A stretch of DNA of 56,724 nt, from NCBI GenBank assembly GCA_025463905.1, contig JAODBJ010000325.1, positions 1 to 56,724 on the forward strand. The letters are read 5' to 3'. This stretch comes from Actinomycetes bacterium. Lineage in GTDB: Bacteria > Actinomycetota > Acidimicrobiia > IMCC26256 > PALSA-610. The position numbers and the translations under genes are program-made. The notes beneath the pieces were generated by a model that saw only the letters and a list, made by a program, of their open reading frames with translations, had not been told where the DNA came from and searched no databases. Below are positions 6,184-19,303 of the stretch, in pieces; within the stretch, counting starts at the first letter, position 1, and every line of letters starts with the position of its first letter.

Positions 6184-6522
6184 TTGAATTCACCGGACAC
6201 GACGCGGGGAACACCCAGCCTTCGGCTCGCTCGCTTGCCAGATGATGGCGCGCCTGTACTGGTGGTAACGGGCGAAGTCGACGTGTACGAAGCGCCGGCG
6301 TTCCGCCACGAACTCCTCGGGATCATCGACGAGGGTCACGAGAGGATCGTGGTCGATTGTTCGGGGATGCGGTTCATCGATTCCGCCGGCCTTGCATCGC
6401 TCGTCGATGCGCAGCGCCGTATGAGCGCGCGCGACGGCACGATCGTGTTGCGGGGCATGCGGCCCGCAGCGAGGCGAATCTTCGAGATCACCGACCTCAA
6501 GTCGTTGTTCGCCTTCGACTGA
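6184..6522 (+). CDS. STAS-domain anti-sigma-factor antagonist (STAS-1)
   Basis: C-terminal part of ORF 6052..6522. Proposed TTG start at 6184, 5 nt after GGAGGA (6173-6178). VLVVTGEVDVYEAPAFRHEL...VVDCSGMRFIDSAGLASLV carries the SpoIIAA/RsbV-type DS.G phospho-serine motif. The upstream ORF sequence is Arg-rich and not protein-like. Confidence 0.75.
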   Translation: MNSPDTTRGTPSLRLARLPDDGAPVLVVTGEVDVYEAPAFRHELLGIIDEGHERIVVDCSGMRFIDSAGLASLVDAQRRMSARDGTIVLRGMRPAARRIFEITDLKSLFAFD

Positions 6523-6525
6523 CGG

Positions 6526-8082
6526 TTACATCCGGGCTTGCAACGCGGTGTCGACGTCGTCGAGTTGGCGATCGAGCCATTTCTGCACGCTGTTGTGCCG
6601 CACGATCTCCACACCGGCTTGGCGGCGGATCCGGCGTTCCTCGAGGGGCATGGTGAGGGCTTCGTAGATGGCGTGCGCCTGTTGGTCGATGTCGAAGGGT
6701 GAGAGCGTCACTGCGACCGCCCCCAGTTCTTCGTAGGCACCCGTGTTCTCGGACAAGGCCAGCACGCCGTCGCGCGCATTCACGACGATGGCTTCCTTGG
6801 AGACCAGGTTCATGCCGTCGAAGACCGCGTTCACCATGAGCACATCGAACAGGCGGTACGCGGCGACAGCGAGTGGCAAGTTGTCGCCGAAGCGAAGGTC
6901 GACCGGCTGCCATTCGTCCGTTCCGAACCGTTCGTTTACGTGATCGACGGCGCGGTTGATGTCGTCGACGTACGCCACATACTGCGGCACGTCTTGGCGG
7001 CTCGGTTGTAGAAGCGCGAGGAACGTAACGCGCTCGTGTAGCTCCGGGTGGAGTTCGAGCATGCGTTCGTAGGCGCGGAAACCGCGCACGATGTTCTTCG
7101 ACGGGTCGGTTCGGTCGACGCGTAACACGAGGTGCTCACGTCGTTCACGAGCTAGCGCTTCTTCGTGCCGGGAGGCTTCGGGTGTGTCGGCCAGTTCGAG
7201 GAGTGTCGACGTGTCGACGGAGATCGGGTAGAAGCGGACGGCGACCTCGCGCTCGCCGTAGTGCACGACGCCGCGTTCGAAGTCGACGCTCAGGCCGAGC
7301 AGTTCCTGGCACGACAGCAGGAAGTTGCGGACGTACCGCTCGGTGTGGAACGCCACGATGTCGCTACCCAATAGCCCTTCCATGATCTGTTCGCGGAGCG
7401 CCGCAGGCAGGATGCGCCACGAGTCGGGCTGGGGCCACGGTATGTGCACGAAGAAGTGGAGAAATACGTCGAGTCCGGCGTCGCGTACGAGTTTTGGGAC
7501 CAGGTAGAAGTGATAGTCGTGCACCATCACGATGGAACCCGACGGCACCGCCGACGCCGTCTCGATCACCGCGTCGGCGAAGCGACGGTTCACCTCGACA
7601 TAGCCGTTGTTCCACGCGTCGATCTCGCGGCTGGTGATGTCGGGCGCGCACGCGTGGTCCCACAGGTAGTGCTGGATAAACCAGAGCAAGGGATTCGCGA
7701 TCACCGCATAGAAGTCGTGGTGCGCGTTCGGCTCGATGGAGAGCATCCGCACCGTGCAGGTGCGATCGGCGACGACGTCGTTGGATTCGAACGGTCCTTC
7801 GGCGGCAGCGGCGTGGTCTTCGTCGGTCGATGCGGCGCACACCCAGGTGGTTCGACCGCCGTGGCGCACGAGATCGCGTAACGCCGTGACCAAGCCGCCA
7901 CCTCCTCGGCGGGCGCGGCGCTCGCCTCCCTCGGATTCGAACTGCACCGGTCCTCGGTGCGAGACGAGTACCAGTTCCCGTTGAGGTCTTTGGGGCTCGT
8001 CGCCGCGATCGACCTCTATGCCGCCTATAGCGGGTTCGCCGTGTTCATCCGGAGTTGGTCGAACCAGCACGCTCCCAGCCAC
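6526..8082 (-). CDS. otsA: Alpha,alpha-trehalose-phosphate synthase (GT20)
   Basis: ORF 6526..8448 trimmed. Segments LVLVSHRGPVQFE, GGLVTALRDL, NPLLWFIQHYLWD, VHDYHFYLVPKLVR, FVHIPWPQPD and DGMNLVSKE are OtsA-like. Start proposed at the GTG at 8082 (alternative GTG at 8070), 8 nt after a GGGTAC -10-like element. No ATG is available in this region. Confidence 0.88.
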   Translation of the reverse strand: MAGSVLVRPTPDEHGEPAIGGIEVDRGDEPQRPQRELVLVSHRGPVQFESEGGERRARRGGGGLVTALRDLVRHGGRTTWVCAASTDEDHAAAAEGPFESNDVVADRTCTVRMLSIEPNAHHDFYAVIANPLLWFIQHYLWDHACAPDITSREIDAWNNGYVEVNRRFADAVIETASAVPSGSIVMVHDYHFYLVPKLVRDAGLDVFLHFFVHIPWPQPDSWRILPAALREQIMEGLLGSDIVAFHTERYVRNFLLSCQELLGLSVDFERGVVHYGEREVAVRFYPISVDTSTLLELADTPEASRHEEALARERREHLVLRVDRTDPSKNIVRGFRAYERMLELHPELHERVTFLALLQPSRQDVPQYVAYVDDINRAVDHVNERFGTDEWQPVDLRFGDNLPLAVAAYRLFDVLMVNAVFDGMNLVSKEAIVVNARDGVLALSENTGAYEELGAVAVTLSPFDIDQQAHAIYEALTMPLEERRIRRQAGVEIVRHNSVQKWLDRQLDDVDTALQARM

Positions 8083-8090
8083 ATCCGCGT

Positions 8091-8116
8091 GTACCCCGAG
8101 TCGAGCGCGGCGACAC
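8091..8116 (-). promoter_or_regulatory. SigF-type promoter candidate for otsA (one mismatch in -35)
   Basis: Minus strand reads GTGT-N16-GGGTAC, then 8 nt, then the GTG at 8082. Confidence 0.35.
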
Positions 8117-8143
8117 CCGGGCGCGGCGTTTGCGACACCCGGG
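8110..8143 (+). repeat. 12-bp direct repeat GCGACACCCGGG x2 in the otsA/nuoF-like divergent region
   Basis: Identical 12-mers at 8110-8121 and 8132-8143, 22 bp apart (about two helical turns). They overlap the -35 and spacer of both candidate promoters. Confidence 0.6.
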
Positions 8144-8152
8144 AACGGGTAG
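8128..8152 (+). promoter_or_regulatory. SigF-type promoter candidate for the NuoF-like gene
   Basis: GCGTTT (GTTT at 8128-8131), N15, GGGTAG (8147-8152), then 9 nt to the GTG at 8162. Confidence 0.5.
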
Positions 8153-8161
8153 GCGCGTTCG

Positions 8162-9592
8162 GTGAGTTCGGTCGGTTCGATGACGAAAGACGGATTGCTC
8201 GCGAATGTCGCAACGTTCGACGAGTACCGCGCCAGTGGAGGCGGCAATGGCGTCGTCGCCACGACCGCGCTCGGGAGCGAAGCGACGATCCGGGAAGTCG
8301 AACAGTCGGGACTCAGGGGCCGGGGCGGAGGTGGGTTTCCGACGGGGCGCAAGTGGCGCGCGGTGCGCGACGCAGGCGGCTCGCGTCGCTTCGTCGTGGT
8401 GAACGGCGCCGAGGGCGAACCGGGCACGTTCAAGGACCGCGCCATCATGCGCGCGAACCCCTACCAGGTGATCGAAGGCGTCGCGGTCGCCGCACTCGCC
8501 GTTGGCGCGTCGGACGTGTACTTCGCGATCAAAGCGTCGTTCACTCGCGAGATCGAGCGGGTAGCGCAAGCCGCGGCGGACATGGCAGCCGCGGGCCTGC
8601 TCGGCGACCTCAGCTTCACGATCGCTCGAGGCCCCGACGAGTACCTCTTCGGTGAAGAGAAGGCGATGCTGGAGGTGATCGAAGGCAACGATCCACTGCC
8701 GAGAGTTCTCCCTCCGTACCTCCACGGATTGTTCGCCACGATGCCGCAGCCCGGCTGGGACGCACACGCGAGCGTGAACGACATCGACACCGGCACCGGC
8801 ACCGGCACCGGCACTGACGGTTCCAATCCCACGTTGGTCAACAACGTGGAGACCCTCGCACACGTCGCGTCGATCCTGGACCGCGGTGCATCATGGTTCC
8901 GGTCGCGCGGCACGCCGCGCTCGCCCGGCACGATGGTGTTCACGGTGGTGGGTGACGTCGCCCGACCTTGCGTTGCCGAGTTGGAGATGGGGACGCCGTT
9001 GCGGGTCCTCGTGGAAGACGTCGGCGGCGGCACCGCATCGGGGCGGCCGGTGAAGATGGTGTGCTCCGGCGTGGCCAATGCCGTACTGCCCGGAGACCGG
9101 CTCGACGTTCCGATGCATTTCGACGCGCTGGCGAACGCCGGCGGCGGCCTCGGATCCGGAGGGTTCGTCGTGTACGGCGACGACGTCTGCGCGCTCGCGG
9201 TTGCGCACGCGTACTCCAACTTCCTTTGGGTGGAATCGTGCGGCCAATGCCCGGCGTGCAAACTCGGCAGCGGCGCGATTACCGCCGCGCTCGCAGACCT
9301 GGAAGCGCGCGGTGACGCCGACCAACTTGCGGTGTTGCAGCGCGCGCTCGCGACCGTCACGGACGGCAGCCGGTGTGGGCTACCGGCCGAGGAGCAGAAG
9401 GTGGTTGGCAGCTTGCTGCGTCGGTTCCCGGAAGACGTGGTGGCACACGAAGAAGGTGACGGGCGGCATTGCGCGCTGGGTCACGACGTCATCGTGCCGA
9501 AGGTCGTCGATCTGGAGGACGGCGCCGTCACGTACGACCTACGGCAGCAATACAAACGTCCCGACTGGACGTACGCAGAACCGGCCGCGTGA
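8162..9592 (+). CDS. Orphan NuoF-like (complex I 51-kDa-type) FMN/NADH and 4Fe-4S flavoprotein
   Basis: 476 aa. GLRGRGGGGFPTGRKW, FVVVNGAEGEPGTFKDRAIM and C-terminal ESCGQCPACKLGS are NuoF hallmarks. No nuoE or nuoG lies nearby. Start is the GTG at 8162 (leaderless model) or the ATG at 8180. Confidence 0.85.
   Translation: MSSVGSMTKDGLLANVATFDEYRASGGGNGVVATTALGSEATIREVEQSGLRGRGGGGFPTGRKWRAVRDAGGSRRFVVVNGAEGEPGTFKDRAIMRANPYQVIEGVAVAALAVGASDVYFAIKASFTREIERVAQAAADMAAAGLLGDLSFTIARGPDEYLFGEEKAMLEVIEGNDPLPRVLPPYLHGLFATMPQPGWDAHASVNDIDTGTGTGTGTDGSNPTLVNNVETLAHVASILDRGASWFRSRGTPRSPGTMVFTVVGDVARPCVAELEMGTPLRVLVEDVGGGTASGRPVKMVCSGVANAVLPGDRLDVPMHFDALANAGGGLGSGGFVVYGDDVCALAVAHAYSNFLWVESCGQCPACKLGSGAITAALADLEARGDADQLAVLQRALATVTDGSRCGLPAEEQKVVGSLLRRFPEDVVAHEEGDGRHCALGHDVIVPKVVDLEDGAVTYDLRQQYKRPDWTYAEPAA
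8788..8814 (+). repeat. In-frame hexanucleotide microsatellite (CACCGG)x4.5 inside the NuoF-like gene
   Basis: caccggcaccggcaccggcaccggcac encodes DTGTGTGTGTD. Confidence 0.9.
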
Positions 9593-9593
9593 C

Positions 9594-9917
9594 ATGGGGC
9601 AGGGCGCGGACACGATCATGAAAGTCCTCGACGAGTACGAGCAAGCGGGTTACCGCGGTCAGTTCCGCGTTCTCGAGGGGGCCCGGCTGCAATGCCTGAC
9701 CTGCCGCCACGAGGTCGACGCGAACACCGTGAGGCTCGAACGCCTGCATCGCCTCGAAGGGGCCTCGGACCCGGCCGACATGCTTGCCGTCGCCGGCCTT
9801 CGGTGCCCGAACTGCTCGACGCTCGGGACCGTCGTGCTCAATTACGGGCCCGAGTCGCCGCTGGAAGACGCCGACGTGTTGCTCGCACTCGACGACGAAC
9901 GCACCGGCCCCGAATAG
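9594..9917 (+). CDS. Small hypothetical protein with two Cys pairs (zinc-ribbon-like)
   Basis: C-terminal part of ORF 9078..9917. The ATG at 9594 sits 1 nt after the NuoF-like stop codon (alternative ATG at 9618). It contains QCLTC and RCPNC pairs and an acidic tail. I recognise no family. Confidence 0.6.
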   Translation: MGQGADTIMKVLDEYEQAGYRGQFRVLEGARLQCLTCRHEVDANTVRLERLHRLEGASDPADMLAVAGLRCPNCSTLGTVVLNYGPESPLEDADVLLALDDERTGPE

Positions 9918-9944
9918 CCGCCGCCCGCTCTGGTACGGACGGGA

Positions 9945-10703
9945 TCAGGCGTCGAGGGTTTCGAGCCGGTCTCGCAAGATGCTGAGCGTGCGCGCCAGGA
10001 GGCGCGACACGTGCATCTGGCTGATCCCGACCTTCTGCGCGATTTCGGTCTGGGTCATCTCCTGGAAGAACCGCAGCCGGATGATCATCTGTTCGCGCTC
10101 AGGTAGTTCTTCGATAACGCGCTCGAGCAACACGCGGTGTTCCGCGAGGTCGAACCCGTGATCGTCTTCACCGAGCCGGCCCTCGAGCGTGAGCATCTCG
10201 CTGTTCTCGCTCGGGCGCGAGTCGATCGACGTCGAGCGGTACGCGCCGCCCACTTCCATCGCTTCGAGGACATCTTCTTCGGCGACGCCGAGTTCCTCGG
10301 CGAGTTCAGGGATACGCGGCGGTCGTTGCAACCGTTGCGAGAGTTCGTTGATCGTGTTGCCGAGACGCAGGTGCAGCTCTTGTGGGCGTCGCGGTACGCG
10401 CACGGACCAGGTGCGGTCGCGGAAATGTCGTTTGAGCTCACCTTCGACGGTCGCCGTCGCGAACGTCGAGAACTCGAGTTGGCGGTCGGGATCGAATCGC
10501 TCTACTGCTTTCAACATCCCGAGGTATGCGACCTGCAGCAGATCGTCGAACGGTTCGCCACGGTTCGCGAAGCGTCGCGCGAGGTGCATCGCCAACGACT
10601 TGTGCGCTTCGATCAGCTCATTGCGGAGATGCCGATCGTGCGAGTGGCGGAACTCGACGAATTTGCGGCGGAGTTTCTCGCGCTCCTGCGCGGAGAGCGC
10701 CAT
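9945..10703 (-). CDS. sigF: Group-3 alternative sigma factor, SigF/SigB type
   Basis: ORF 9945..11021 trimmed to the ATG at 10703 (MALSAQEREK...). ARRFANRGEPFDDLLQVAYLGMLKAVERFDP, HFRDRTWSVRVPRRPQELHLRL and MTQTEIAQKVGISQMHVSRLLARTL closely resemble mycobacterial SigF. Confidence 0.9.
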   Translation of the reverse strand: MALSAQEREKLRRKFVEFRHSHDRHLRNELIEAHKSLAMHLARRFANRGEPFDDLLQVAYLGMLKAVERFDPDRQLEFSTFATATVEGELKRHFRDRTWSVRVPRRPQELHLRLGNTINELSQRLQRPPRIPELAEELGVAEEDVLEAMEVGGAYRSTSIDSRPSENSEMLTLEGRLGEDDHGFDLAEHRVLLERVIEELPEREQMIIRLRFFQEMTQTEIAQKVGISQMHVSRLLARTLSILRDRLETLDA

Positions 10704-10704
10704 G

Positions 10705-11127
10705 TCAGTTCGACAGTCGCTTGAAGCAACGGAACCGGGCCGTGCCGGATTGTGCTTCGACCCCGTACTCGTCGACAACTGCCGCCAGGATTTGCTTGGT
10801 GAGATCGTCGATCGCGTATTCGCCGGGCGAGCCGGAGAAGGCGACGGTGCCTTCCATCGCGAGACCGTCTGATCTCGACGTGAATACGAGTTCGAGGTCG
10901 CCGCCGTTCGCGGCCTCGACCAGGATGCTCGACAACTCGTCGATCGCGACGCGTAGGTCTTCGATCTCCTCGACGTCGAAGCCGATCCGCGTCGCGACGC
11001 CCGACGCGGTGAGACGTGCAATACGCACGAACTCGAGTGCGGCTGGGATCGTCAAGCGCACCGTTTCCGGTTCCGCGACGCCCATCCCACTCGCGATCAC
11101 GCCGGTTCCGCCCGTCAGGTCCGCCAT
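10705..11127 (-). CDS. rsbW: Anti-sigma-F factor, RsbW/UsfX-like
   Basis: C-terminal 140 aa of ORF 10705..11745 from the ATG at 11127 (RBS GAGAGGA). EDLRVAIDELSSILVE parallels the DLRLAVDEVCTRLI segment of M. tuberculosis UsfX. The stop lies 1 nt before the sigF ATG. Confidence 0.78.
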   Translation of the reverse strand: MADLTGGTGVIASGMGVAEPETVRLTIPAALEFVRIARLTASGVATRIGFDVEEIEDLRVAIDELSSILVEAANGGDLELVFTSRSDGLAMEGTVAFSGSPGEYAIDDLTKQILAAVVDEYGVEAQSGTARFRCFKRLSN

Positions 11128-11208
11128 CGATCGATCCTCTCGCGTCCACACAGCGCCGTGCCCAGGCGCTCGCGAAGACGTATGTGCCCGCTCCGTTGAA
11201 CGGAAACG

Positions 11209-11234
11209 GTACCCCGTCGGCGGATTCGACAAAC
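11209..11234 (-). promoter_or_regulatory. SigF-type (autoregulatory) promoter of the rsbW-sigF operon
   Basis: Minus strand reads GCGTTT (GTTT = 11234..11231), N16, GGGTAC (11214..11209). A leader of about 81 nt runs to the ATG at 11127. Confidence 0.6.
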
Positions 11235-11237
11235 GCG

Positions 11238-11264
11238 GTTGGCCACCTACGTGGTTCGGGGTAC
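11238..11264 (+). promoter_or_regulatory. SigF-type promoter candidate for the 11285-13890 operon (one mismatch in -35)
   Basis: GTTG (11238-11241), N17, GGGTAC (11259-11264). RBS GAGGAAG and the ATG at 11285 follow. It sits back-to-back with the rsbW-sigF promoter. Confidence 0.4.
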
Positions 11265-11284
11265 ACCCACGGTGAGGAAGCACC

Positions 11285-11713
11285 ATGGGACTCGACGACG
11301 ACACCTTTCGAGATGAGTTCGAGCAGCGGCTGCCGGCAACGACCCGCAGCCTCGCCGAACTCCGGCACGCCGTCCGGGAGTGGGCTGCCCGCGCCACCGA
11401 CGACGAGGACCGAATGGCCGACATCGTGTTGGCCGCCTCGGAGATGGGGGCGGCCGCGATGCGCGTGGCGCCGCCAACGGCAACGGTGGTGCTGGCGGCG
11501 TGGGTCGACCGGGCCTGCGTGGTGATCGAGTCGCGAGTTGAGACCTCGCGAGATGCCCACGCCCCGCACGCCAACGACGACGATGGTGACGAGCGAGGGT
11601 TTTCGATTGTCGCTGCACTCTCCGACGTGATTGCGGTGCGCGACTCGTCGTCCGGCGTCGTCGTTCGAGCCCGGCTCCGGCGGCGCGGCTTCGACGTCGC
11701 CGTCGCCGGGTAG
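11285..11713 (+). CDS. RsbW/SpoIIAB-like anti-sigma regulatory factor paralog (degenerate HATPase fold)
   Basis: 142 aa. LAELRHAVREWAARA...DIVLAASEMGAAAMRVA and ERGFSIVAALSDVIAV follow the layout of anti-sigma kinases. The N-box Asn and the Gly-rich lid are not evident. Confidence 0.6.
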   Translation: MGLDDDTFRDEFEQRLPATTRSLAELRHAVREWAARATDDEDRMADIVLAASEMGAAAMRVAPPTATVVLAAWVDRACVVIESRVETSRDAHAPHANDDDGDERGFSIVAALSDVIAVRDSSSGVVVRARLRRRGFDVAVAG

Positions 11714-11731
11714 CGATACTCCGAGGCCATT

Positions 11732-12865: not shown

Positions 12866-13221
12866 GCGATCTCGTGGAGGTCGTGGCCCGGCAGGACCGT
12901 TCGGTGCCCGTGTGTGAACTGCGAGGCGAACTCGACGCGTCCAACGTCGATCGCGTCCAGACGGCACTGCTCGACTGCGTGACGAAGGACGTGCCCGGTC
13001 TCGTGCTCGACCTGACCGACACGTCGTACCTCGACAGTGCAGGCGTGCGAATTCTCTTCGACTTGGCCCGCCGCTTACGGGCCCGCCGTCAGGAGTTGCG
13101 GCTCGTGGTCCCGCCCGACGGCGTGGTGCGTCGAGTGCTGGTGCTCACGGCACTGGCCGACGTCGTGCCCGTGGACGAAGAAACCGACGACGCAGTCCGC
13201 GCCTTGCGGGCGCGCCGATGA
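12862..13221 (+). CDS. STAS-domain anti-sigma-factor antagonist (STAS-2)
   Basis: The GTG at 12862 overlaps the upstream TGA (GTGA) and follows GGAGGA by 7 nt. ELRGELDASNVDRV...LVLDLTDTSYLDSAGVRILFDLARRL. A close paralog of STAS-5. Confidence 0.85.
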   Translation: MSDLVEVVARQDRSVPVCELRGELDASNVDRVQTALLDCVTKDVPGLVLDLTDTSYLDSAGVRILFDLARRLRARRQELRLVVPPDGVVRRVLVLTALADVVPVDEETDDAVRALRARR

Positions 13222-13230
13222 GGAGTTGAC

Positions 13231-13890
13231 GTGGAACGCGGAAGCACGCAGCACTCCGGGCGCATGGACGATGCGCTCGCCGAAGAGGTTGAGCCGCTGG
13301 TCCGCAGCGGGCATGAGACCCGTGCCAACGAAGACCGGGAGCACGAGCCGCCGGCGGACGACGAACCCTTGCCGGACGTGCGTATCGCCGGCGAGGACGT
13401 ACCGATGCCCGGGCTCCTCGACCTCGATGAGATCCAAGCGCGTTCGACGCTCGCGACATCGTTGCGGCCGAGTGTGTTCCCCGCGGACAGAGAGCACCTG
13501 CTCGAAGTGGCCAACGAGCAGTACGCCCCGCCCGACGTGCTGGAAGCGCTCGAGACCCTGCCGCCGCGCCGTCGCTTCGTAAACGTCCAGCAGGTGTGGG
13601 AGGCACTCGGCGGCGACCGAGAGCGACGCGACACCGCCGCGGCATCGGTGCCGACCGCCGCCGAACTGCCGGTCGAGGAACCGTTGGCTGCGGAACGGTC
13701 GGTGGCGGAACCGCGCGTGACGGAAGCGTCAGTGACGAGAACGTTGCCCAATCCGGTGGGCGAACACGAGGTCGGTGACGGCGAGGCGTGGTGGGTGCCA
13801 CCGCTGCGCACCGGCGTCGCGCTCGCGGCGTTGCCGCTGCGGATTGGGATCGGCGTGCTGCGCGCCGTTCGGAGTCGCTTGCCGCGTTGA
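13231..13890 (+). CDS. DUF2795-domain protein with a hydrophobic C-terminal tail
   Basis: GTG start 5 nt after GAGGAG. FPADREHLLEVANEQYAPPDVLEALETLPPRRRFVNVQQVWEAL matches the DUF2795 pattern. Acidic N-terminal half. C-terminus WWVPPLRTGVALAALPLRIGIGVL. Confidence 0.72.
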   Translation: MERGSTQHSGRMDDALAEEVEPLVRSGHETRANEDREHEPPADDEPLPDVRIAGEDVPMPGLLDLDEIQARSTLATSLRPSVFPADREHLLEVANEQYAPPDVLEALETLPPRRRFVNVQQVWEALGGDRERRDTAAASVPTAAELPVEEPLAAERSVAEPRVTEASVTRTLPNPVGEHEVGDGEAWWVPPLRTGVALAALPLRIGIGVLRAVRSRLPR

Positions 13891-13910
13891 GCGCTACCGG
13901 CGGGTGTGAC

Positions 13911-14225
13911 TCAAGGCGCTGAGAGATCGCTGAGCACGCCGGCGATCTCGAGGACCTGCTGCACTGCGCCGGATGCTTCTGCAAGCATGAGGCGACCACC
14001 CGTGTCGCGCAGTCGCCGCGACGCGCCGATGATCGTGCGGATGCCGCTCGAATCCAGGAACTCGACATCGCCGAGCCGTAGCAGGATCAACCCGGCGCCG
14101 TCGTCGATGAGCTTGTCCAGCTTCGCTTGGAGTTGCGGTGCGGTTGCGAGGTCGAGCGTGCCGCGAGCCGTAACCGAATACGCGCCGGGCGACTCGTTCG
14201 ACGACGTCAGGTCGACGAAGGGCAT
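13911..14225 (-). CDS. STAS-domain anti-sigma-factor antagonist (STAS-3)
   Basis: From the ATG at 14225 within ORF 13911..14645. VTARGTLDLATAPQLQAKL...LRLGDVEFLDSSGIRTIIG. Confidence 0.85.
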   Translation of the reverse strand: MPFVDLTSSNESPGAYSVTARGTLDLATAPQLQAKLDKLIDDGAGLILLRLGDVEFLDSSGIRTIIGASRRLRDTGGRLMLAEASGAVQQVLEIAGVLSDLSAP

Positions 14226-14238
14226 GCCCGCACCACTA

Positions 14239-14583
14239 TCACTCGGAACTGGCTGCCGGAACACCAAAGTGCTCGCGCAGGCCCGTGATCTCGAGCAGCC
14301 GCAGCACTGGCTCGCTTGCCTCGCGCAACTCGAGCCGGCCACCGCTACCTTCGAGCCGGCGGTGCACCGTGAGGAGCGCGCGCAAACCCGACGAGTCGAG
14401 GAACGCGGTCTGCGACAGGTCGAGCAGTAATTCCTTCGTTTGCTCGGCCAGCAGCGCCGCGATGTGGTCTTCGAGCGCGGGCGCGGTGTACGCGTCCAGC
14501 TCCCCCTGTACTGCGAGCACAACCTGGTCACCGTTGCGGTCCGTTGTGAGGACCAGCTCGGGCCCAACCACCTGTTCGTCCAC
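14239..14583 (-). CDS. STAS-domain anti-sigma-factor antagonist (STAS-4)
   Basis: 114 aa. GTG start with GGGAGGAC upstream. LAVQGELDAYTAPALEDHI...LLLDLSQTAFLDSSGLRALL. Confidence 0.85.
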   Translation of the reverse strand: MDEQVVGPELVLTTDRNGDQVVLAVQGELDAYTAPALEDHIAALLAEQTKELLLDLSQTAFLDSSGLRALLTVHRRLEGSGGRLELREASEPVLRLLEITGLREHFGVPAASSE

Positions 14584-14620
14584 GCGCCAAGTCCTCCCGC
14601 CAAATTGCCTGCCCCAGTAG

Positions 14621-14647
14621 ATACCCGGGTTCGGCCCGTCCGCAAAC
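14621..14647 (-). promoter_or_regulatory. SigF-type promoter of the STAS-4/STAS-3 pair
   Basis: Minus strand reads GCGTTT (GTTT = 14647..14644), N17, GGGTAT (14626..14621). A leader of about 30 nt carries a GGGAGGAC RBS before the GTG at 14583. Confidence 0.6.
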
Positions 14648-14675
14648 GCGGCTTTCGAACCGGCTGTTTAGGGCA

Positions 14676-15245
14676 TCAACTCACGCGTTGACGAACTCGT
14701 TTCACCGCGCCCCGACCGGCATCGAGCGCACGATCGACGAACGCGAAGGCGGGGCCGGCCGCGAGGTTGAGCGGCGGTTCGTCGGGCGCGCCTGGATGCG
14801 GGTGCGTCGGCGCGGACTTCTTGGCCGCTTGCATCATCTCGCCGAGCTCACGCAACTCGTTCCGCGTGAGCGCCTGGCGCAGGGCCGGGAAGAGATCCTT
14901 CTCTTCTTCCTTCACATGGTGTCGCACCAACTCAGTGAGCACCGTCACCTTCGCGTCGAAACGCGGGTCCTCGGGCGACATGCGCTCGAGCATCGAGAGT
15001 TCGAGCTTCACGAGGAGATGTTCCTCGAGCGATTCCATCGCCATGTCGGCGAGCTTTTCGGCGCGCTCGCGCGCGACGGGGTACAGAAACTGCTCCTCGA
15101 TCGCGGCGTGGACCGACAACTCGCGCACGATCTTGTCGACCGTTGTCCGCTTCGATTTCGCGGCGCGCTCGCCGAGCGCTTCATATTTTTTGAACAGTTG
15201 CTCGACCGTGTGGTGGTCTTCGCGCAGCAGTGTGATTGCGTCCAT
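14676..15245 (-). CDS. Hemerythrin (HHE cation-binding) domain protein
   Basis: 189 aa. DAITLLREDHHTVEQLFKKYE, HAAIEEQFLYP, VRHHVKEEEKDLFPAL. Confidence 0.85.
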   Translation of the reverse strand: MDAITLLREDHHTVEQLFKKYEALGERAAKSKRTTVDKIVRELSVHAAIEEQFLYPVARERAEKLADMAMESLEEHLLVKLELSMLERMSPEDPRFDAKVTVLTELVRHHVKEEEKDLFPALRQALTRNELRELGEMMQAAKKSAPTHPHPGAPDEPPLNLAAGPAFAFVDRALDAGRGAVKRVRQRVS

Positions 15246-15254
15246 GTATGCGCG

Positions 15255-15280
15255 TTACCCGCGGTTGCTCGCGCCAAAAC
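15255..15280 (-). promoter_or_regulatory. SigF-type promoter immediately upstream of the hemerythrin gene, inside the 3' end of the Rieske gene
   Basis: Minus strand reads GTTT (15280..15277), N16, GGGTAA (15260..15255), then 9 nt to the ATG at 15245. No Shine-Dalgarno sequence is present, which fits a leaderless mRNA. Confidence 0.5.
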
Positions 15281-16196
15281 GGTCGCTTGTGAGCGGGGCC
15301 TCGTCCAGCACCACGTCGGGGCTCGCGCCGTCCTGCAGCGGCCCGCGCACTTCCACCATGTCGCCGCGGATGCGCGCGTCGTAGACGGGTTGCGGCGTGG
15401 TCGCGGGCCCGCGCACCACCGCACCGTCGCGCAGCGCGTATTCGCTTCCGTGCCATGGGCAGCGCAATGCGCCGCGGTCGACGGATCCTTCGTCGAGCGG
15501 ACCACCGGCGTGCGAGCACACTGCGGCAAGGGCGTGAACGATGGCGCCGCGCCGAACCAGCGCAATGCGCGCACCGTCAACGACGACGCCCTTGGGTTCG
15601 TTGTCGCGCAGTTCATTCGCGGCACACACCGCCTGCCACGTCGGGATGTCGACGACCGGTACTTCGACGTCGACGCCAACCCTTTGGTTGAAGACGAGAT
15701 GACCGCCCAGGTATCCGCCAACCGCAGTCGCGCCGAGTCCGATCATGCTCAGCGCGCTGCCGCGCAGGCGATGCCCTCTCCCGCGCGCCCGCCACGACGC
15801 CAATTGCAACGTGAGCGCGGTGACGTTCGCGGTTGCGTGCACCACACCGACGCGCTTGTCTTCGCCGAAGCTGTCGTGCCAGTCGGAGAGGCCGGCCGCG
15901 GCAGTTGGGAGTGACGCCAAGATCCCTACGCCCACGAGTCGCCGCGACGCGAGGCGCCCCGCGCGGCCACCGAGTACGTCGAGGACCGTTGCACTCGTCC
16001 AGGCGCCGATCGGTATGTCGGTGAGCATCGGGTGCAGCCGGTGACCGAGCCACGATCCTGAGAGCAGCCGCTTCACGTCGTCTCGGCGGGTCAACGTTTC
16101 CGACAACGAAGAGAGGGGGCGCGCGATCTGGTCGAGCCGTTCGTCCTTACCGGCTCGGTCCACGAGCGCGCGCACACGCCGGGTGATTTCATCCAT
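15255..16196 (-). CDS. DUF2231 membrane domain fused to a Rieske [2Fe-2S] domain
   Basis: 313 aa. N-terminal half LGHRLHPMLTDIPIGAW plus hydrophobic segments. C-terminal Rieske motifs CSHAGGPL and CPWHGSEY. Confidence 0.85.
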   Translation of the reverse strand: MDEITRRVRALVDRAGKDERLDQIARPLSSLSETLTRRDDVKRLLSGSWLGHRLHPMLTDIPIGAWTSATVLDVLGGRAGRLASRRLVGVGILASLPTAAAGLSDWHDSFGEDKRVGVVHATANVTALTLQLASWRARGRGHRLRGSALSMIGLGATAVGGYLGGHLVFNQRVGVDVEVPVVDIPTWQAVCAANELRDNEPKGVVVDGARIALVRRGAIVHALAAVCSHAGGPLDEGSVDRGALRCPWHGSEYALRDGAVVRGPATTPQPVYDARIRGDMVEVRGPLQDGASPDVVLDEAPLTSDRFGASNRG

Positions 16197-16262
16197 CGCG
16201 AACCTCCGATTGGTCTCGGGCCTCTTCCCGCGGGGTGCGTACCCAAACGGCCAGCCGGCTGA

Positions 16263-16610
16263 TCAGGCGAGGTCGCCGAGTGCGCTTTCGACGGTCGTGT
16301 GCAGGGGCACCTCGTCGTCGAGCTTGGTGAGCAAGATCACCCGCCGCACGAGTGCCTGATCGGTGACGACCAGGGCCAGCTGCTGACGCCGGGCCTGCAG
16401 GCGTTCCGCGAGGTCGAACAGCAGCCGGATGCCGCTGCTGTCGAGGTAGGTGGTCGCGGACAGGTCGAGGACCACCCGTGCGATGTTGCTCGCGACGCGT
16501 GCGGTCACCTCGTTGCGGATGTCGTCGACGTTCGAGAGATCGATTTCGCCTTTGACCCGAACGATCAGCGCTCGCGGCAGTTCTTCGAAATCGATGTGGG
16601 CGAGGTTCAC
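16263..16610 (-). CDS. STAS-domain anti-sigma-factor antagonist (STAS-5)
   Basis: 115 aa. The GTG at 16610 overlaps the upstream TGA (GTGA at 16607-16610). VKGEIDLSNVDDIRNEV...VVLDLSATTYLDSSGIRLLFDLAERL. Confidence 0.85.
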   Translation of the reverse strand: MNLAHIDFEELPRALIVRVKGEIDLSNVDDIRNEVTARVASNIARVVLDLSATTYLDSSGIRLLFDLAERLQARRQQLALVVTDQALVRRVILLTKLDDEVPLHTTVESALGDLA

Positions 16611-19303
16611 GCCGGCGGGCCTCCGCTCGCCAGCGCTCGGGTCATGCGCACGGTGGTCCCGTCATTCGTCGTCTCGATCGACACGTCGTCCATGAGGTCG
16701 CGGATCAAGATCAACCCTCGGCCGCCGCCCACACCGGGACGATCGGGTCGCCAGCGCCCAAAGTCTCGCACCCGCACGTCGACCACGCCAGCACCCGATC
16801 GGACACCGGACGCCGTCGCGGTCACCTCGATCCGCGCGTCGCCGGGACCATACGCGTGTTCTACGGCGTTGGCCGCAGCTTCGTTCACGGCCAGCACGAT
16901 GGCATCGCACTCGTCCACCGATGCGCCGGCGCGCGCGGCCCACTCGCCGATCCCGCGGCGGAGCCTCGCGAGTTCGCGTGGGAACGCGTCGAGGCGCATT
17001 GAGAACTCGGTGAGTTCGGCTTCGAATCGCACCACGAGGAGTGCGACGTCGTCGGTGGGCGGGCTACTCGCAGAGAGCTTCTCGATCACGTGATCTGCGA
17101 GTGCCTCGACTGTGTCGGGGCCGTCGCGCAGGGCGACTGCGAGCCGTTCGAATCCGTCGTCGAGGGGTTCGTGACGACGCTCGACGAGGCCGTCGGTGTA
17201 GAGAAGAAGTGTCGCTCCCGCCGTGATGAGCACTTCGGTTTCTTCGTATATGGCTCGCGGCGAGGCGCACACCGGCATGCCCCGCGCCGGGTCGAGATAA
17301 TGCACATGACCATCGGGTTCGCGTAGGAGTGGCGGGAGGTGTCCCGCACTGGCCAAACGTGCTCGGCGTGTCCGTGGTTCGTACACGAGCAGGCCGATGG
17401 TCGCCATGTCGGCGTCGGCGAACGAACAGAAATGGCGGTTGAGGTTGGTGAGGATGTCGGCCGGCGACGCGTTGTCGACGGCGTAGATCTCGAGCGCGTT
17501 GCGCAGACGCCCCATTGAAGACGCCGCCCGCACTCCGTGGCCCACGACGTCGCCGATCGCGAGGAACAGCCGGCCGTCGGTGAGCACGAGCGCGTCGTAC
17601 CAGTCGCCACCGATGCGCAACCCGGCCGCACCCGGGATATAGCGGCCGGTGATCGCGATGCCTGGGACTTCCGGCAGCGCGGCCGGCAACAATGTGCGTT
17701 GCAGCACCTCGATCATTTCCCGGTTGTCGGCGTAACGCTGCGCGTTCTCTACCGCCGGCGCGACACGTCGCGCGATCTCGAGCGCGACGGGAATGTCTTC
17801 GGGCTGGTAACGCCGCCCCGACGCGCTGTACCCGAATCCCAGTGCACCGATAGGCCCGTTCTCACCGAACATCGGCACCGCGAGGTACGACCGCAGCGGA
17901 TTGCCGTTCCCGGTGGCGCGCACATTGATGCCGGCGACCATTTCGTCGGCGGCTGGGCCCGGCAGTTCTTCCACGAGGACTGCGCGCCCGGTGCGTACCG
18001 CTTCGCACGGCGGCACGTCGGCGTCGAGTCCGTGCGACGGGAACGCGGCGCGCTCGAGCGCGGCCTGAACTTGCGGGTCCGAGTGCCCGGCGGCCACGAG
18101 GTTGAGGACGCCGTTCTCGACGAGGTACACGCCGGTCCCGTCGGCGAATTCCGGGAGCAACAGCCGAGCGACCCGGCGCAACCGTTGCGCGAGGTCGAGC
18201 TCGATCTTGAGCAATTCGCCGACGCGCGCGAGAAGCTGCAATCGCGCCGCGGCTCGCGCGGCATCGCCGGCGAGCCGCACGCTTTCGAGGACTTGCGCGA
18301 TACGGCGGCCGAGCTCGCGTGCGATCTCGATGTCGGCGTCGCGGTATTGCCGCTTGCTCGTCGACGTGTAGAGGAACGCGACCGCGCCGGCGACGCGACC
18401 GCCCACACCGAGCGGCACCGTGATCGACGATTTGCCGGCGAGCACTTCGAGGTACTCGAGATACTCCTCGTTTTGTGCCGCGGCGCGCCGGGCTTCTTCG
18501 TCGACGATCTCGAAGAATTGGACCTCGCCAGTGCGTATTGCGGTCGCGGCAGGCCCAAAAGGAGTCGGAGGCGGCAGTTGCGCCGACATCGCGCGCAGAT
18601 CCCGTTCCATGTCGGGATCGCAATGCGTGATCGTCGCGCGGCGGACCGAGCCGTTTGCCGTCGGCATGAACACGATGCACACATCGGCGAACGTGGGCAG
18701 CGCGAGCCGAGCCACCTGCTCGATCGCCTCGTCGAATGTGAGGTCGACCGCGAAGAGGTTGCTGGCGCGCGCTAAGAGCTCGATCTCCTGCTCGGCGCGT
18801 TTGCGTTCGGTGATATCCACCACGAGCGCCCCGAGCCCGATCGGCGCCTCGCCGGGTTTCCCCGCGTCTCGCTGCACCGGGAAAAGACTCGCGAGCCAAT
18901 GCTGCTCGACGCCGGGTTCCGAGCGGATCCGGCCCGATACCTCGAGATCGACGATCGGCTGGCCCGTCGTCTGCACCTGCTCGAACAGTGGCTCGACTCG
19001 AACCCAGATACTCGGCAACGCATCAGCGACCCGCCGGCCCGTCAGTTGATCGGCGCGGTATCCGAAGAGCGCGGCGAACGTGTCGTTGACGCGCGTGATC
19101 GTGCCGTCCGGCTCGAAGAACGCGAACGCGACGGGCGAGCGAGCGAGAAGCGTGTCGAGGCGCGCCGCCGTCGTACGCAGTTCCTCGCCCGCCCGTACCG
19201 CGCTCCGCCAGCGCGTGGAGCGGCGGCGCGCCGCCGTTCCAGCCACGGCCGCCGCCGCGCCACTGACGCCCACCAACCAACGACGAGCGAGACTTCGACG
19301 CAC
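16607..19303 (-). CDS. PAS-GAF-GAF sensor fused to a SpoIIE/PP2C phosphatase and an RsbW-type kinase
   Basis: 898 aa with a GTG start. PAS-like SPVAFAFFEPDGTITRVNDTFAALFGY. Two GAF-like blocks. PP2C motifs GGDWYDAL, LAIGDVVGHGVRAASSMGRLRNAL, SAGHLPPLL, LLLYTDGLVERR and DDVALLVVRF. Kinase N-box VNEAAANAVEHAY and G-box GGGRGLILIRDLMDD. Confidence 0.9.
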   Translation of the reverse strand: MRRSLARRWLVGVSGAAAAVAGTAARRRSTRWRSAVRAGEELRTTAARLDTLLARSPVAFAFFEPDGTITRVNDTFAALFGYRADQLTGRRVADALPSIWVRVEPLFEQVQTTGQPIVDLEVSGRIRSEPGVEQHWLASLFPVQRDAGKPGEAPIGLGALVVDITERKRAEQEIELLARASNLFAVDLTFDEAIEQVARLALPTFADVCIVFMPTANGSVRRATITHCDPDMERDLRAMSAQLPPPTPFGPAATAIRTGEVQFFEIVDEEARRAAAQNEEYLEYLEVLAGKSSITVPLGVGGRVAGAVAFLYTSTSKRQYRDADIEIARELGRRIAQVLESVRLAGDAARAAARLQLLARVGELLKIELDLAQRLRRVARLLLPEFADGTGVYLVENGVLNLVAAGHSDPQVQAALERAAFPSHGLDADVPPCEAVRTGRAVLVEELPGPAADEMVAGINVRATGNGNPLRSYLAVPMFGENGPIGALGFGYSASGRRYQPEDIPVALEIARRVAPAVENAQRYADNREMIEVLQRTLLPAALPEVPGIAITGRYIPGAAGLRIGGDWYDALVLTDGRLFLAIGDVVGHGVRAASSMGRLRNALEIYAVDNASPADILTNLNRHFCSFADADMATIGLLVYEPRTRRARLASAGHLPPLLREPDGHVHYLDPARGMPVCASPRAIYEETEVLITAGATLLLYTDGLVERRHEPLDDGFERLAVALRDGPDTVEALADHVIEKLSASSPPTDDVALLVVRFEAELTEFSMRLDAFPRELARLRRGIGEWAARAGASVDECDAIVLAVNEAAANAVEHAYGPGDARIEVTATASGVRSGAGVVDVRVRDFGRWRPDRPGVGGGRGLILIRDLMDDVSIETTNDGTTVRMTRALASGGPPA

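Follow-up and report, generated by a model that had tools for sequence, protein, structure and literature searches.

Positions 6184-19303 of the window, the 56,724-nucleotide stretch of DNA from an uncultured soil actinobacterium that we analyzed, encode an accumulation of partner-switching proteins around one sigma factor gene, which raises the question whether these proteins form a single network and which of them act upon each other. Based on Pfam and NCBIfam matches, this 13-kb interval contains one SigB/F/G-family sigma factor, two small RsbW-like proteins, two PP2C-HATPase fusions and five single-domain STAS proteins, and every part listed in a preceding sequence-only reading was recovered at, or a few bases from, the position given for it there. 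Six to seven genes inside the interval do not belong to the switch (OtsA-like GT20, NuoF-like, a 106-aa ORF, DUF2795, hemerythrin and DUF2231-Rieske).

Some points of that reading did not hold. The density of components had been called exceptional; the window does rank first among 81 loci, yet it lies on a continuum, and such density is ordinary for Actinomycetota, as S. coelicolor possesses 45 RsbW, 17 RsbV and 44 PP2C homologues (PMC8346170). The cluster is a tidy but by no means unusual instance of a familiar mode of regulation. The mycobacterial SigF framing was likewise not borne out, since the best matches of the sigma factor are in uncultured Acidimicrobiia-type soil MAGs (identity of at most 87%), while those of Geodermatophilaceae are only 54% identical. 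The host is not a mycobacterium and probably belongs to the Acidimicrobiia.

The sigma factor and two degenerate RsbW proteins

9945-10703, minus strand: group-3 sigma factor of the SigB/SigF/SigG family, 252 aa (TIGR02980 SigB/F/G, 271.6 bits, cutoff 234.35)
10705-11127, minus strand: RsbW1, anti-sigma factor, 140 aa, degenerate GHKL domain (HATPase_c_2, 23.9 bits, below the 27.4 cutoff)
11285-11713, plus strand: RsbW2, second kinase-dead RsbW paralogue, 142 aa (HATPase_c_2, 43 bits)

The sigma factor satisfies the SigB/F/G model at the family level only. With 262.8 bits against a cutoff of 372 for the SigF-specific PRK07122, the names SigF and UsfX apply by analogy only. A single nucleotide separates rsbW1 from the sigma start that follows it (junction TGA-c-ATG), and RsbW1 is the only partner whose gene is translationally coupled to that of the sigma factor. 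It is found near almost every locus (77 RsbW1 versus 96 sigma tblastn matches over 80 loci, some with two pairs); in L082, the sigma gene is preceded by a predicted gene of 140 aa. Among PDB entries, RsbW1 matches RsbW (6m36, 1.2e-8) and the mycobacterial anti-sigma-F RsbW (8jzt/8ih8, ~1e-4).

RsbW1 lacks the N-box Asn as well as the G1 and G2 boxes, and the Asn is kept in none of 77 RsbW1-like homologues. RsbW2 has neither the Asn nor the G boxes, and the Asn is missing from its orthologues in L002-L004 too. Hence, the word degenerate was apt for both small proteins. Judged by these motifs, the RsbW1-type anti-sigma factor is kinase-dead throughout the clade, so phosphorylation of the antagonists would have to come from elsewhere.

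Two fusion enzymes and five STAS proteins

11732-12865, plus strand: PPK377, PP2C(SpoIIE)-HATPase_c_2 fusion, 377 aa (SpoIIE, 167.5 bits; HATPase_c_2, 94 bits)
16607-19303, minus strand: PPK898, sensor enzyme with PAS-GAF-GAF-SpoIIE(PP2C)-HATPase_c_2 domains by Pfam/NCBIfam, 898 aa
6184-6522, plus strand: STAS1, single-domain antagonist (TIGR00377, 65.8 bits; DSAG; TTG start preceded by the SD GGAGGA)
12862-13221, plus strand: STAS2, beginning with a GTG that overlaps the stop codon of PPK377 (GTGA)
13911-14225 (alternatively to 14240), minus strand: STAS3 (TIGR00377, D-S-x-G)
14239-14583, minus strand: STAS4, RsbV-equivalent antagonist (TIGR00377, D-S-x-G, orthologue synteny)
16263-16610, minus strand: STAS5, beginning with a GTG that overlaps the stop codon of PPK898 (GTGA)
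13231-13890, plus strand: DUF2795 protein, 9 nt past STAS2 (SD GGAG)

The two fusions are the only proteins nearby with intact kinase boxes (N and G), which RsbW1 and RsbW2 lack. PPK898 also retains all four PP2C metal motifs and has a full-length orthologue in L001, the closest relative (67% identity). PPK377 is devoid of a sensor domain, and its residues 31-365 align to the phosphatase-kinase structure of Rv1364c (3KE6, E=1.3e-41). Since its TDG metal motif reads TNG, a D→N replacement, its phosphatase activity is uncertain.

All five STAS proteins match the anti-sigma factor antagonist model TIGR00377 (65.8-78.4 bits, cutoff 53.45), and in their alignment D, S and G of the D-S-[A/S]-G motif are invariant, in line with the claim that each keeps the phospho-serine motif. 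STAS2 and STAS5 form a subfamily of their own (44% mutual identity, 23-31% to the other three). STAS3, encoded 13 nt downstream of STAS4, is 36% identical to the latter and retained beside it in L001 only (77% identity). STAS1 is an outlying member adjoining the OtsA and CDF genes, a site that it also occupies in L001 (67% identity).

Conservation of gene order

It had been stated that the wiring of the STAS proteins cannot be inferred from sequence. Gene order nevertheless supplies most of it. From conserved neighborhoods and coupling, STAS2 can be matched with PPK377, STAS5 with PPK898 and STAS4 with RsbW1: the GTGA overlaps indicate translational coupling of either fusion to its STAS gene, a STAS2-type gene directly follows a PPK gene in 9 of 12 loci, STAS5 neighbors the PPK898 orthologues of L001 and L033, and STAS4 orthologues lie directly upstream of RsbW1 in 16/26 loci (e.g. 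L006-L018, L034). STAS2 and STAS5 are therefore the predicted cognate substrates of PPK377 and PPK898, respectively. The PPK377-STAS2 pairing is not obligatory, as L001 keeps STAS2 while PPK377 and RsbW2 are absent. By its synteny, STAS4(-STAS3) with RsbW1-Sig is the ancestral core of the rsbV-rsbW-sigB type.

In the synteny comparison, which covered 80 related genome loci, the cluster was not conserved as a whole: what persists is the STAS4-RsbW1-Sig core alone, and the accessory modules vary among relatives. One such module is the divergent operon RsbW2-PPK377-STAS2-DUF2795, with RsbW2 first and the DUF2795 gene last; the latter and STAS2 are co-located in L002-L005 and L021. In distant metagenome loci, a STAS gene follows the PPK gene in 62 of 72 cases, and in all but one of those listed that exceed 10 kb no sigma or RsbW1 homologue was found near the pair. 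STAS2 and STAS5 may hence have outputs other than this sigma factor. Of the network proposed earlier, a multi-component switch on one SigB/F/G-type sigma factor is supported, whereas a joint action of the five STAS proteins on it is not, because the distant pairs usually stand alone.

Putative sigma-dependent promoters and regulon

8128-8151, plus strand: exact motif GTTT-N15-GGGTA, 11 nt before the start codon of the NuoF-like gene; also at the L001 NuoF orthologue
8162-9592, plus strand: NuoF-like stand-alone flavoprotein (Complex1_51K, SLBB, NADH_4Fe-4S), predicted regulon member
11210-11234, minus strand: exact motif GTTT-N16-GGGTA, 83 nt upstream of rsbW1
14622-14647, minus strand: exact motif GTTT-N17-GGGTA, 39 nt upstream of STAS4
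14676-15245, minus strand: hemerythrin-domain protein, predicted regulon member
15256-15280, minus strand: exact motif GTTT-N16-GGGTA, located in the 3'-terminal part of the Rieske gene, 11 nt before the hemerythrin start codon
15255-16196, minus strand: DUF2231 membrane domain and Rieske [2Fe-2S] protein (domain matches)
6526-8082, minus strand: GT20 trehalose-6-phosphate synthase-like protein (OtsA; Glyco_transf_20, 372.5 bits), candidate regulon member
19606-20241, minus strand: Fe/Mn superoxide dismutase (SOD), tentative regulon member

The exact SigB-type motif GTTT-N15-17-GGGTA occurs five times in the window (0.40 expected). Four of these sites are in the cluster, each pointing at a gene start shortly downstream (three intergenic, one within the 3' end of the Rieske gene); they precede rsbW1-sig, STAS4(-STAS3) and the hemerythrin and NuoF-like genes and recur at orthologous sites in relatives. 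The rsbW1 motif has equally placed counterparts in L001-L005, L019, L023 and L024, that of STAS4 at its orthologues in L007, L008, L019, L022, L023, L026, L029 and L034, and that of the hemerythrin gene in L003, L021 and L031. Autoregulation of rsbW1-sig is predicted from these sites, the NuoF-like transcript is probably leaderless given its promoter spacing, and the hemerythrin protein is a possible O2/H2O2 input (literature lead PMC4295536).

Matches with one mismatch were not found to be enriched, and the divergent operon and the OtsA, Rieske and SOD genes have only such or variant matches. The promoter assignment of OtsA (tentative GTG start at 8082, 9 nt after a 1-mismatch motif at 8092-8116) is thus tentative. 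GTTT-N15-GGGAA lies 29 nt upstream of the Rieske gene (16225-16248; also at the L003 and L021 orthologues) and GTTT-N16-GGGAA 248 nt upstream of SOD (20489-20513), with a similar motif 142 nt upstream of the L001 SOD gene.

A modular partner switch and its alternatives

Based on these comparisons, we consider it fairly probable that a modular partner switch controls one SigB/F/G-type stress sigma factor in an Acidimicrobiia-like host, with a predicted redox/oxidative-stress regulon partly interleaved. RsbW1 would sequester the sigma factor, and unphosphorylated STAS proteins would bind RsbW1 and free it. Since RsbW1 appears unable to phosphorylate them, phosphorylation of the STAS proteins would be governed in trans by the pair of bifunctional fusions, of which PPK898 may integrate signals sensed by its PAS/GAF domains, while PPK377, lacking a sensor and carrying the D→N replacement, may lean towards kinase activity. 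The divergently encoded, kinase-dead RsbW2 would most likely be a decoy or a heterodimer partner of RsbW1, comparable to M. smegmatis RsbW3, and the promoters upstream of rsbW1-sig and STAS4 would provide feedback. The fusion kinase domains could also bind the sigma factor themselves, as has reportedly been proposed for Rv1364c. Precedents exist in M. smegmatis, with a kinase-dead RsbW1, separate kinase RsbW2, decoy RsbW3 and a GTTT-N17-GGGTAA promoter (PMC7693655) and with RsfB acted on by a PP2C enzyme (PMC10950880), and in PA3346, which has kinase and phosphatase activity towards its STAS neighbor PA3347 (PMC8256260).

The same genes might instead constitute independent switches side by side, with STAS4(/STAS3)-RsbW1-Sig alone controlling the sigma factor, PPK377-STAS2 and PPK898-STAS5 being self-contained with non-sigma outputs, similar to SypE/SypA or further STAS-only regulators, and RsbW2 serving another partner. 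The wide spread of the two-gene module, with no sigma or RsbW homologue seen nearby in all but one of the long loci listed, the persistence of the core while accessory modules come and go, the separate STAS2/STAS5 subfamily and documented STAS-only proteins with non-sigma outputs (PMC8256260) all agree with this reading, which we nonetheless regard as rather unlikely. In both Acidimicrobiia-type MAGs and Geodermatophilaceae, a PPK377-type gene lies near, upstream of and divergent to rsbW-sig, and linkage kept despite 54% sigma identity argues for a maintained functional link. Moreover, STAS4 retains its phospho-serine although RsbW1 appears kinase-dead clade-wide, so a trans-acting kinase would be needed, and the fusions carry the only intact ones nearby. 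Sigma-type motifs with one mismatch also precede RsbW2 and PPK377, and exact ones occur at comparable sites in L002-L005, L019 and L023.

It is less probable still that the HATPase domains of both fusions and RsbW2 each sequester the sigma factor, in parallel, and are each relieved by the adjacent STAS protein. While the fusion HATPase_c_2 domains are nearer to RsbW/SpoIIAB than RsbW1 is, and each fusion has its own coupled STAS, M. smegmatis SigF is bound by RsbW1 only and not by RsbW2 or RsbW3 (PMC7693655), the coupling and near-ubiquity described above single out RsbW1, and most distant PPK-STAS pairs have no detected sigma homologue nearby. That unrelated regulatory genes came together by chance or through a chimeric assembly might be suspected for an uncultured source whose exact sigma protein was found elsewhere only on two short JGI metagenome contigs, but is extremely improbable. 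L001 shares the order GlgE-SOD-PPK898-STAS5-STAS4-STAS3-STAS2-RsbW1-Sig-NuoF-OtsA-STAS1-CDF over ~14 kb, which effectively refutes chance; in addition, more than 20 independent MAGs share sub-arrangements, the GC content is uniform over the window and gene pairs are joined by start/stop codon overlaps.

Comparison with known partner-switching systems

The proposed modular switch with RsbW1 as anti-sigma factor resembles several characterized systems. As in B. subtilis RsbV-RsbW-SigB and S. coelicolor RsbB-RsbA-SigB, simpler relatives (L006-L018) show the STAS-RsbW-sigma core order, and sigma-dependent autoregulation, predicted for the cluster, and the GTTT…GGGTA promoter type are shared (PMC8346170). 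In contrast to these operons, the RsbW1 of the cluster apparently cannot be a kinase, the core in the window is split by the inserted divergent operon, and RsbR/S/T stressosome genes were not encountered.

P. aeruginosa HsbR/HsbA (PA3346/PA3347) and V. fischeri SypE/SypA also combine an RsbW-type kinase and PP2C in one protein with a single-domain STAS target (PMC8256260, PMC10120452), which in P. aeruginosa is encoded by the neighboring gene. However, HsbR and SypE are under receiver domain and phosphorelay control and act on FlgM/sigma-28 or biofilm genes, whereas the cluster enzymes have PAS/GAF inputs or none, and the output next to them is an RsbW-SigB-type pair. M. tuberculosis Rv1364c (PAS-PP2C-GHKL kinase-STAS fusion; 3KE6) shares the order PP2C, HATPase and then STAS substrate, and with PPK898 the N-terminal PAS sensor; unlike in Rv1364c, STAS is a separate coupled gene, PPK898 has two extra GAF domains, and PPK377 has no sensor domain and TNG in place of TDG.

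M. smegmatis SigF (RsbW1, RsbW2, RsbW3, RsfA, RsfB, RsfS/RsfR; PMC7693655, PMC10950880) likewise comprises a SigB/F/G-family sigma factor, an anti-sigma factor without kinase activity, a D-S-x-G serine that, as predicted for the cluster, is phosphorylated by a different GHKL kinase and dephosphorylated by a PP2C enzyme, more than one STAS antagonist, an additional kinase-dead RsbW paralogue, the GTTT-N-GGGTA promoter type and a link to respiration and oxidative stress. The cluster differs in its host lineage, in a sigma factor that fails the SigF-specific model, in two fused kinase-phosphatases where M. smegmatis has RsbW2 on its own and a REC-PP2C protein, RsfR, controlled by a histidine kinase, in five rather than two STAS proteins, and in its location at one 13-kb locus rather than three.

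Gene content of the cluster

The G+C content is about 67% all along the window, so that six-frame ORF lists are crowded with spurious frames. Genes were picked in the window by third-position GC and then verified against Pfam and NCBIfam. The sequence-only reading of this DNA had counted five STAS proteins (the single-domain anti-sigma-factor antagonists STAS1 to STAS5), two PP2C(SpoIIE)-HATPase fusions (PPK377 and PPK898, of 377 and 898 aa), two small RsbW-like proteins (RsbW1 beside the sigma gene, and its paralogue RsbW2 at the head of the divergent operon) and one sigma factor. This inventory proved correct, and the coordinates of the components were accurate.

Table. Genes of the cluster 6184-19303 (coordinates, strand, assignment)
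6184-6522, +, STAS1 (Pfam/NCBIfam)
6526-8082, -, GT20 OtsA-like gene (Pfam/NCBIfam)
8162-9592, +, stand-alone NuoF-like gene (Pfam/NCBIfam)
9597-9917, +, 106-aa ORF between the NuoF-like gene and the sigma gene
9945-10703, -, SigB/F/G-family sigma factor (Pfam/NCBIfam)
10705-11127, -, RsbW1
11285-11713, +, RsbW2 (HATPase_c_2)
11732-12865, +, PPK377, PP2C-HATPase fusion
12862-13221, +, STAS2
13231-13890, +, DUF2795 gene
13911-14225, -, STAS3
14239-14583, -, STAS4
14676-15245, -, hemerythrin gene
15255-16196, -, DUF2231-Rieske gene
16263-16610, -, STAS5
16607-19303, -, PPK898, PAS-GAF-GAF-PP2C-HATPase gene

Five further long ORFs, namely 8461-9360(-), 9078-9917(+), 10613-12652(-), 13906-14430(+) and 19438-20502(+), were judged to be spurious high-GC frames because they lack Pfam hits and clash with better-supported genes. 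The 106-aa ORF at 9597-9917(+) likewise gave no Pfam hit; it contains two Cys-x-x-Cys pairs (LQCLTCRH…LRCPNCST) and resembles a zinc ribbon, and on an independent metagenome contig (L081) a gene call of 107 aa occupies the matching position. Neither the Rfam scan nor the tRNA scan of the window gave a match.

Beyond the cluster lie an Fe/Mn SOD gene and then, directly beside the sigma cluster at 20579-38942, a long block for trehalose, glycogen and other alpha-glucan metabolism, which encodes GlgE, a TreS-like 1234-aa amylase-family protein, MalQ, GlgB-like and GlgX/isoamylase-like proteins and two more amylase-family proteins, possibly TreZ/TreY-like, and is broken by a sulfatase gene (34416-36689). 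Together with the OtsA-like gene at 6526-8082, this block suggests a trehalose and osmotic-stress neighbourhood. Elsewhere in the window, at 40541-41989(-), lies a gene unrelated to the cluster; it encodes an ATP-dependent DNA ligase of the LigD type (non-homologous end joining), which carries a 3'-phosphoesterase domain at its N terminus. A second, unrelated sigma-70-family protein at 50513-51508, preceded by a YCII-domain gene (50027-50443), combines regions 2 and 4 with a C-terminal SnoaL-like domain; by domain content it is ECF-like, and a separate anti-sigma gene is not evident.

Identity and lineage of the sigma factor

The sigma factor of the cluster, in which Sigma70_r2, r3 and r4 were all found, scores 271.6 bits on the SigB/SigF/SigG group 3 model TIGR02980 (cutoff 234.35) and only 262.8 bits on the SigF subfamily model PRK07122 of NCBIfam (cutoff 372). 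Relatives were sought with the sigma protein in one genome per GTDB species, and the 80 best loci were taken. The best 46 of these 80 belong to uncultured soil MAGs labelled 'Acidimicrobiia' or 'Actinomycetes', with a sigma identity of 87% in the closest genome (L001) and of 72-81% in about twenty other loci; Geodermatophilaceae come next at 54%, and mycobacteria are absent from the 80 best loci. Outside the window, the exact sigma protein turned up on two short JGI metagenome contigs only. With matches of at most 87% in Acidimicrobiia-type or 'Actinomycetes' MAGs and no mycobacteria among the 80 best loci, a mycobacterial origin was rejected. Since the subfamily model failed, only the family model was passed and the kin are Acidimicrobiia-type, the name mycobacterial SigF/UsfX that had been given to this pair holds as an analogy and not as an identification.

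Conservation among relatives

We placed 18 window proteins on the 80 loci by tblastn. In L001 the order is GlgE-SOD-PPK898-STAS5-STAS4-STAS3-STAS2-RsbW1-Sig-NuoF-OtsA-STAS1-CDF, so that all five STAS genes and PPK898 are present and ordered as in the window; RsbW2, PPK377, DUF2795, hemerythrin and Rieske gave no tblastn match in this locus. Six other relatives (L002-L005, L019, L023) keep the divergent module, consisting of PPK377 or a longer PPK and STAS2, beside RsbW1-Sig, and most of them also carry RsbW2 and/or DUF2795; STAS1 and STAS3 were missing from these six by tblastn. About fifteen more relatives (L006-L018, L034) retain STAS4-RsbW1-Sig alone, which is the classical rsbV-rsbW-sigB order. 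The synteny in the 80 loci thus marks the core as ancestral and stable and the accessory modules as mosaic: as for the question whether the cluster is conserved as a unit, this is true of STAS4-RsbW1-Sig and not of the accessory modules. Counting switch components other than sigma, the window holds nine and is the richest of 81 loci, followed by L001 with seven and six loci with six, in tblastn counts with window queries that under-detect divergent paralogues.

In more distant Acidimicrobiia-type MAGs (L024, L031-L036, L039-L045, L078) there are two RsbW-sigma pairs, which in most cases stand back to back with divergent transcription, and a STAS1-like gene lies downstream. There the RsbW-sigma module is duplicated, unlike the accretion of antagonists in the window.

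Catalytic residues of the switch proteins

A single STAS domain (TIGR00377/PF01740) was found in all five STAS proteins with 65.8-78.4 bits against a cutoff of 53.45. The phospho-serine motif D-S-x-G, said earlier to be kept by all five, aligns as D-S-[A/S]-G with D, S and G invariant, and in their unphosphorylated state these proteins would be expected to bind an RsbW-type anti-sigma factor.

RsbW2 scores 43 bits on HATPase_c_2 (PF13581); RsbW1, matched over its N-terminal half only, reaches 23.9 bits (cutoff 27.4). RsbW1 matches the RsbW structure 6m36 of the PDB at 1.2e-8 and a mycobacterial anti-sigma-F RsbW at about 1e-4. The four HATPase domains were aligned to a SpoIIAB reference sequence. 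In this alignment, PPK377 and PPK898 retain the N-box (…EAxxNAxEHAY) and the G boxes (RDxG, GGGRG), and the corresponding N-box regions of RsbW1 (DELSSILVEAA) and RsbW2 (SEMGAAAMRVA) are devoid of the catalytic asparagine; the G1/G2 boxes of the ATP lid are degenerate in both. None of 77 RsbW1-like homologues from related loci kept the N-box asparagine, and the description of both small RsbW proteins as degenerate is well founded.

Both fusions carry PP2C (SpoIIE) and then HATPase_c_2 within one polypeptide, and PPK377 matches the Rv1364c phosphatase-kinase structure 3KE6 over nearly its full length (E=1.3e-41). This PP2C-GHKL order is common to Rv1364c and the two fusions, whereas the STAS domain fused in Rv1364c is not present at the C terminus of PPK377 or PPK898; in the window the STAS protein has a gene of its own, whose start overlaps the stop codon of the fusion. 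The four PP2C metal motifs (GGDxYD, DxxGHG, TDG, DD) are intact in PPK898. In PPK377 the TDG motif reads YTNG (residues 186-189, window 12287-12298), where Rv1364c has YTDG; the closest PPK377 orthologues (L002-L005, L019, L023) carry TDG, and several Blastococcus homologues have independently acquired SNG. The recurrent D→N exchange may mark phosphatase-weakened, kinase-biased variants of the fusion family.

Gene order and predicted cognate pairs

The RsbW1 gene lies directly upstream of the sigma gene, with its stop and the sigma start 1 nt apart (TGA-c-ATG), and this adjacency recurs across related loci. The stop codon of PPK377 overlaps the start of STAS2 (GTGA), and that of PPK898 overlaps the start of STAS5 alike; STAS2 and STAS5 are mutual closest paralogues (44% identity). 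The spacers in RsbW2-PPK377-STAS2-DUF2795 are 18, -4 and 9 nt, and STAS4 and STAS3 are 13 nt apart. Among related genomes, a STAS4-type gene immediately precedes RsbW1 in 16 of 26 cases, and a STAS2-type gene immediately follows a PPK in 9 of 12. Partner pairs of the STAS proteins had been considered beyond what sequence alone could tell; owing to the physical clustering, with its overlaps and recurrent adjacencies, predicted cognate pairs are readable.

A metagenome scan with PPK377 confirmed at least 581 relatives, all of them distant homologues of at most 44% identity, so that a near-identical copy of the cluster, and with it a same-species replicate, was not found among these matches. In soil metagenomes (L083-L162), a short PP2C-HATPase fusion (about 370 aa) with a STAS gene after it is very common. 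Of 72 metagenome loci that could be evaluated, 62 have a STAS gene on the strand of the PPK and no more than 200 nt behind it, and 59 of these 62 genes are of the STAS2 or STAS5 type; hence PPK→STAS constitutes a widespread, self-contained kinase/phosphatase-substrate module.

Promoter motifs and predicted regulon

GTTT-N-GGGTA is the established promoter pattern of SigB in B. subtilis, of the SigB homologues in S. coelicolor and of SigF in M. smegmatis (PMC8346170, PMC7693655). We searched for exact GTTT-N13-18-GGGTA against 100 shuffles and obtained five matches in the window (0.40 expected), a number that none of the 100 shuffles reached. Four of the five lie in the cluster, each in the right orientation and a short way ahead of a gene start.

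Table. Exact promoter motifs in the cluster (gene, distance upstream of the start)
NuoF-like gene, 11 nt
rsbW1, 83 nt
STAS4, 39 nt
hemerythrin gene, 11 nt

The motif is also found at orthologous positions in relatives, upstream of RsbW1 in L001-L005, L019, L023 and L024, of STAS4 orthologues in eight loci, of hemerythrin orthologues in L003, L021 and L031, and of NuoF in L001. GGGAA variants precede the Rieske gene and, farther off, SOD in the window; the variant recurs upstream of Rieske orthologues in L003 and L021, and a similar motif upstream of SOD in L001. The motifs at interleaved genes suggest that the non-switch genes are best read as part of a predicted sigma regulon of redox and oxidative-stress flavour, and the sigma factor appears to be autoregulated.

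The fifth exact match, 48284-48306(+), was rejected as a promoter; it sits early in the coding sequence, at the 5' end, of a flavoprotein gene of the amine-oxidase/CrtI family (48260-49618), in the N-terminal NAD/FAD-binding stretch, and is probably due to chance, consistent with the 0.4 matches expected. The window has 37 one-mismatch matches, which show no enrichment in the cluster, and those upstream of OtsA, RsbW2 and PPK377 are tentative promoters. A sigma-70 promoter scan of the window returned zero promoter-like sites, and terminator-like sites did not exceed the shuffle expectation. The -10 elements of the predicted sigma-dependent promoters end 9-11 nt before the starts of the NuoF-like gene, the hemerythrin gene and tentatively OtsA (motif-to-start stretches 8128-8162, 15245-15280 and 8082-8116, respectively), and such short distances to the start codons imply leaderless mRNAs.

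Model of the switch and alternative explanations

We consider a modular partner switch, in which RsbW1 and sigma are controlled by STAS proteins whose states are set by the fusions, a reasonably probable reading of the cluster. Sigma would be sequestered by RsbW1 and released once unphosphorylated STAS proteins bind RsbW1. Since RsbW1 is predicted to be kinase-dead, the phosphorylation state of the STAS proteins would be set by the two bifunctional enzymes, of which PPK898 would respond to PAS/GAF signals, and RsbW2 might pair with RsbW1 as a decoy. For each of these proposed steps there is a counterpart established by experiment. The RsbW1 of M. smegmatis binds SigF without phosphorylating RsfB; Ser-63 of RsfB has RsbW2 as its sole kinase, and RsbW3 binds RsbW1 and raises SigF activity (PMC7693655). 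The PP2C phosphatase for RsfB is RsfR (PMC10950880). Kinase together with phosphatase activity is described for Rv1364c on its own STAS domain (summarised in PMC7693655) and for P. aeruginosa PA3346 on its STAS neighbour PA3347 (PMC8256260). A hemerythrin-like protein represses SigF in M. smegmatis (PMC4295536), and the clustered hemerythrin could therefore be an input to the switch as well as an output, a possibility that we offer as a lead.

Independent modules that merely lie side by side are an unlikely alternative, raised mainly by the PPK-STAS pairs of the metagenomes: among the matches listed, all but one of the long loci are without a sigma or RsbW1 homologue near the pair. That the fusions act as additional anti-sigma factors we hold to be quite improbable. 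The shared gene order in L001 leaves chance juxtaposition or a chimeric assembly as an explanation to which we give hardly any credence.

A more far-reaching version of the partner switch, which we regard as rather doubtful, is a 'disassembled Rv1364c' network. A constitutively kinase-dead anti-sigma factor would be titrated by a hierarchy of five STAS proteins, and two bifunctional enzymes of opposite bias would write and erase phosphorylation, PPK898 as a signal-gated phosphatase/kinase and PPK377, which lacks a sensor, chiefly as a kinase through D→N; a feedback loop that responds to O2 or redox state would be completed by the decoy RsbW together with a hemerythrin/Rieske/NuoF redox module induced by sigma. 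Were this version correct, the wiring of a multi-input partner switch in Acidimicrobiia could be drawn completely, and in testable form, from gene order alone.

Comparison with known systems

To our knowledge, there is no experimental study of sigma regulation in Acidimicrobiia. The cluster offers a compact natural test bed in which several STAS proteins and bifunctional kinase/phosphatases would share one kinase-dead anti-sigma factor, a question that also concerns mycobacterial SigF and the many SigB paralogues of Streptomyces. It extends the design of a kinase-dead RsbW plus a trans-acting kinase past Mycobacterium to Acidimicrobiia-type soil bacteria, and for an uncultured lineage it yields a promoter motif and a small regulon, both predicted, the latter made up of the hemerythrin, Rieske and NuoF-like genes and possibly SOD and OtsA. 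It reveals neither a new mechanism nor a new protein family and would not surprise a specialist; its usefulness is that of a compact model locus. All of the protein families, the kinase-dead design of the anti-sigma factor, bifunctional kinase/phosphatases acting on neighbouring STAS proteins, the autoregulatory promoter and large paralogue numbers are already known in Actinomycetota; S. coelicolor, for example, has 9 SigB, 45 RsbW, 17 RsbV and 44 PP2C homologues (PMC8346170). What sets the cluster apart from these known systems is its lineage and the degree of its physical clustering.
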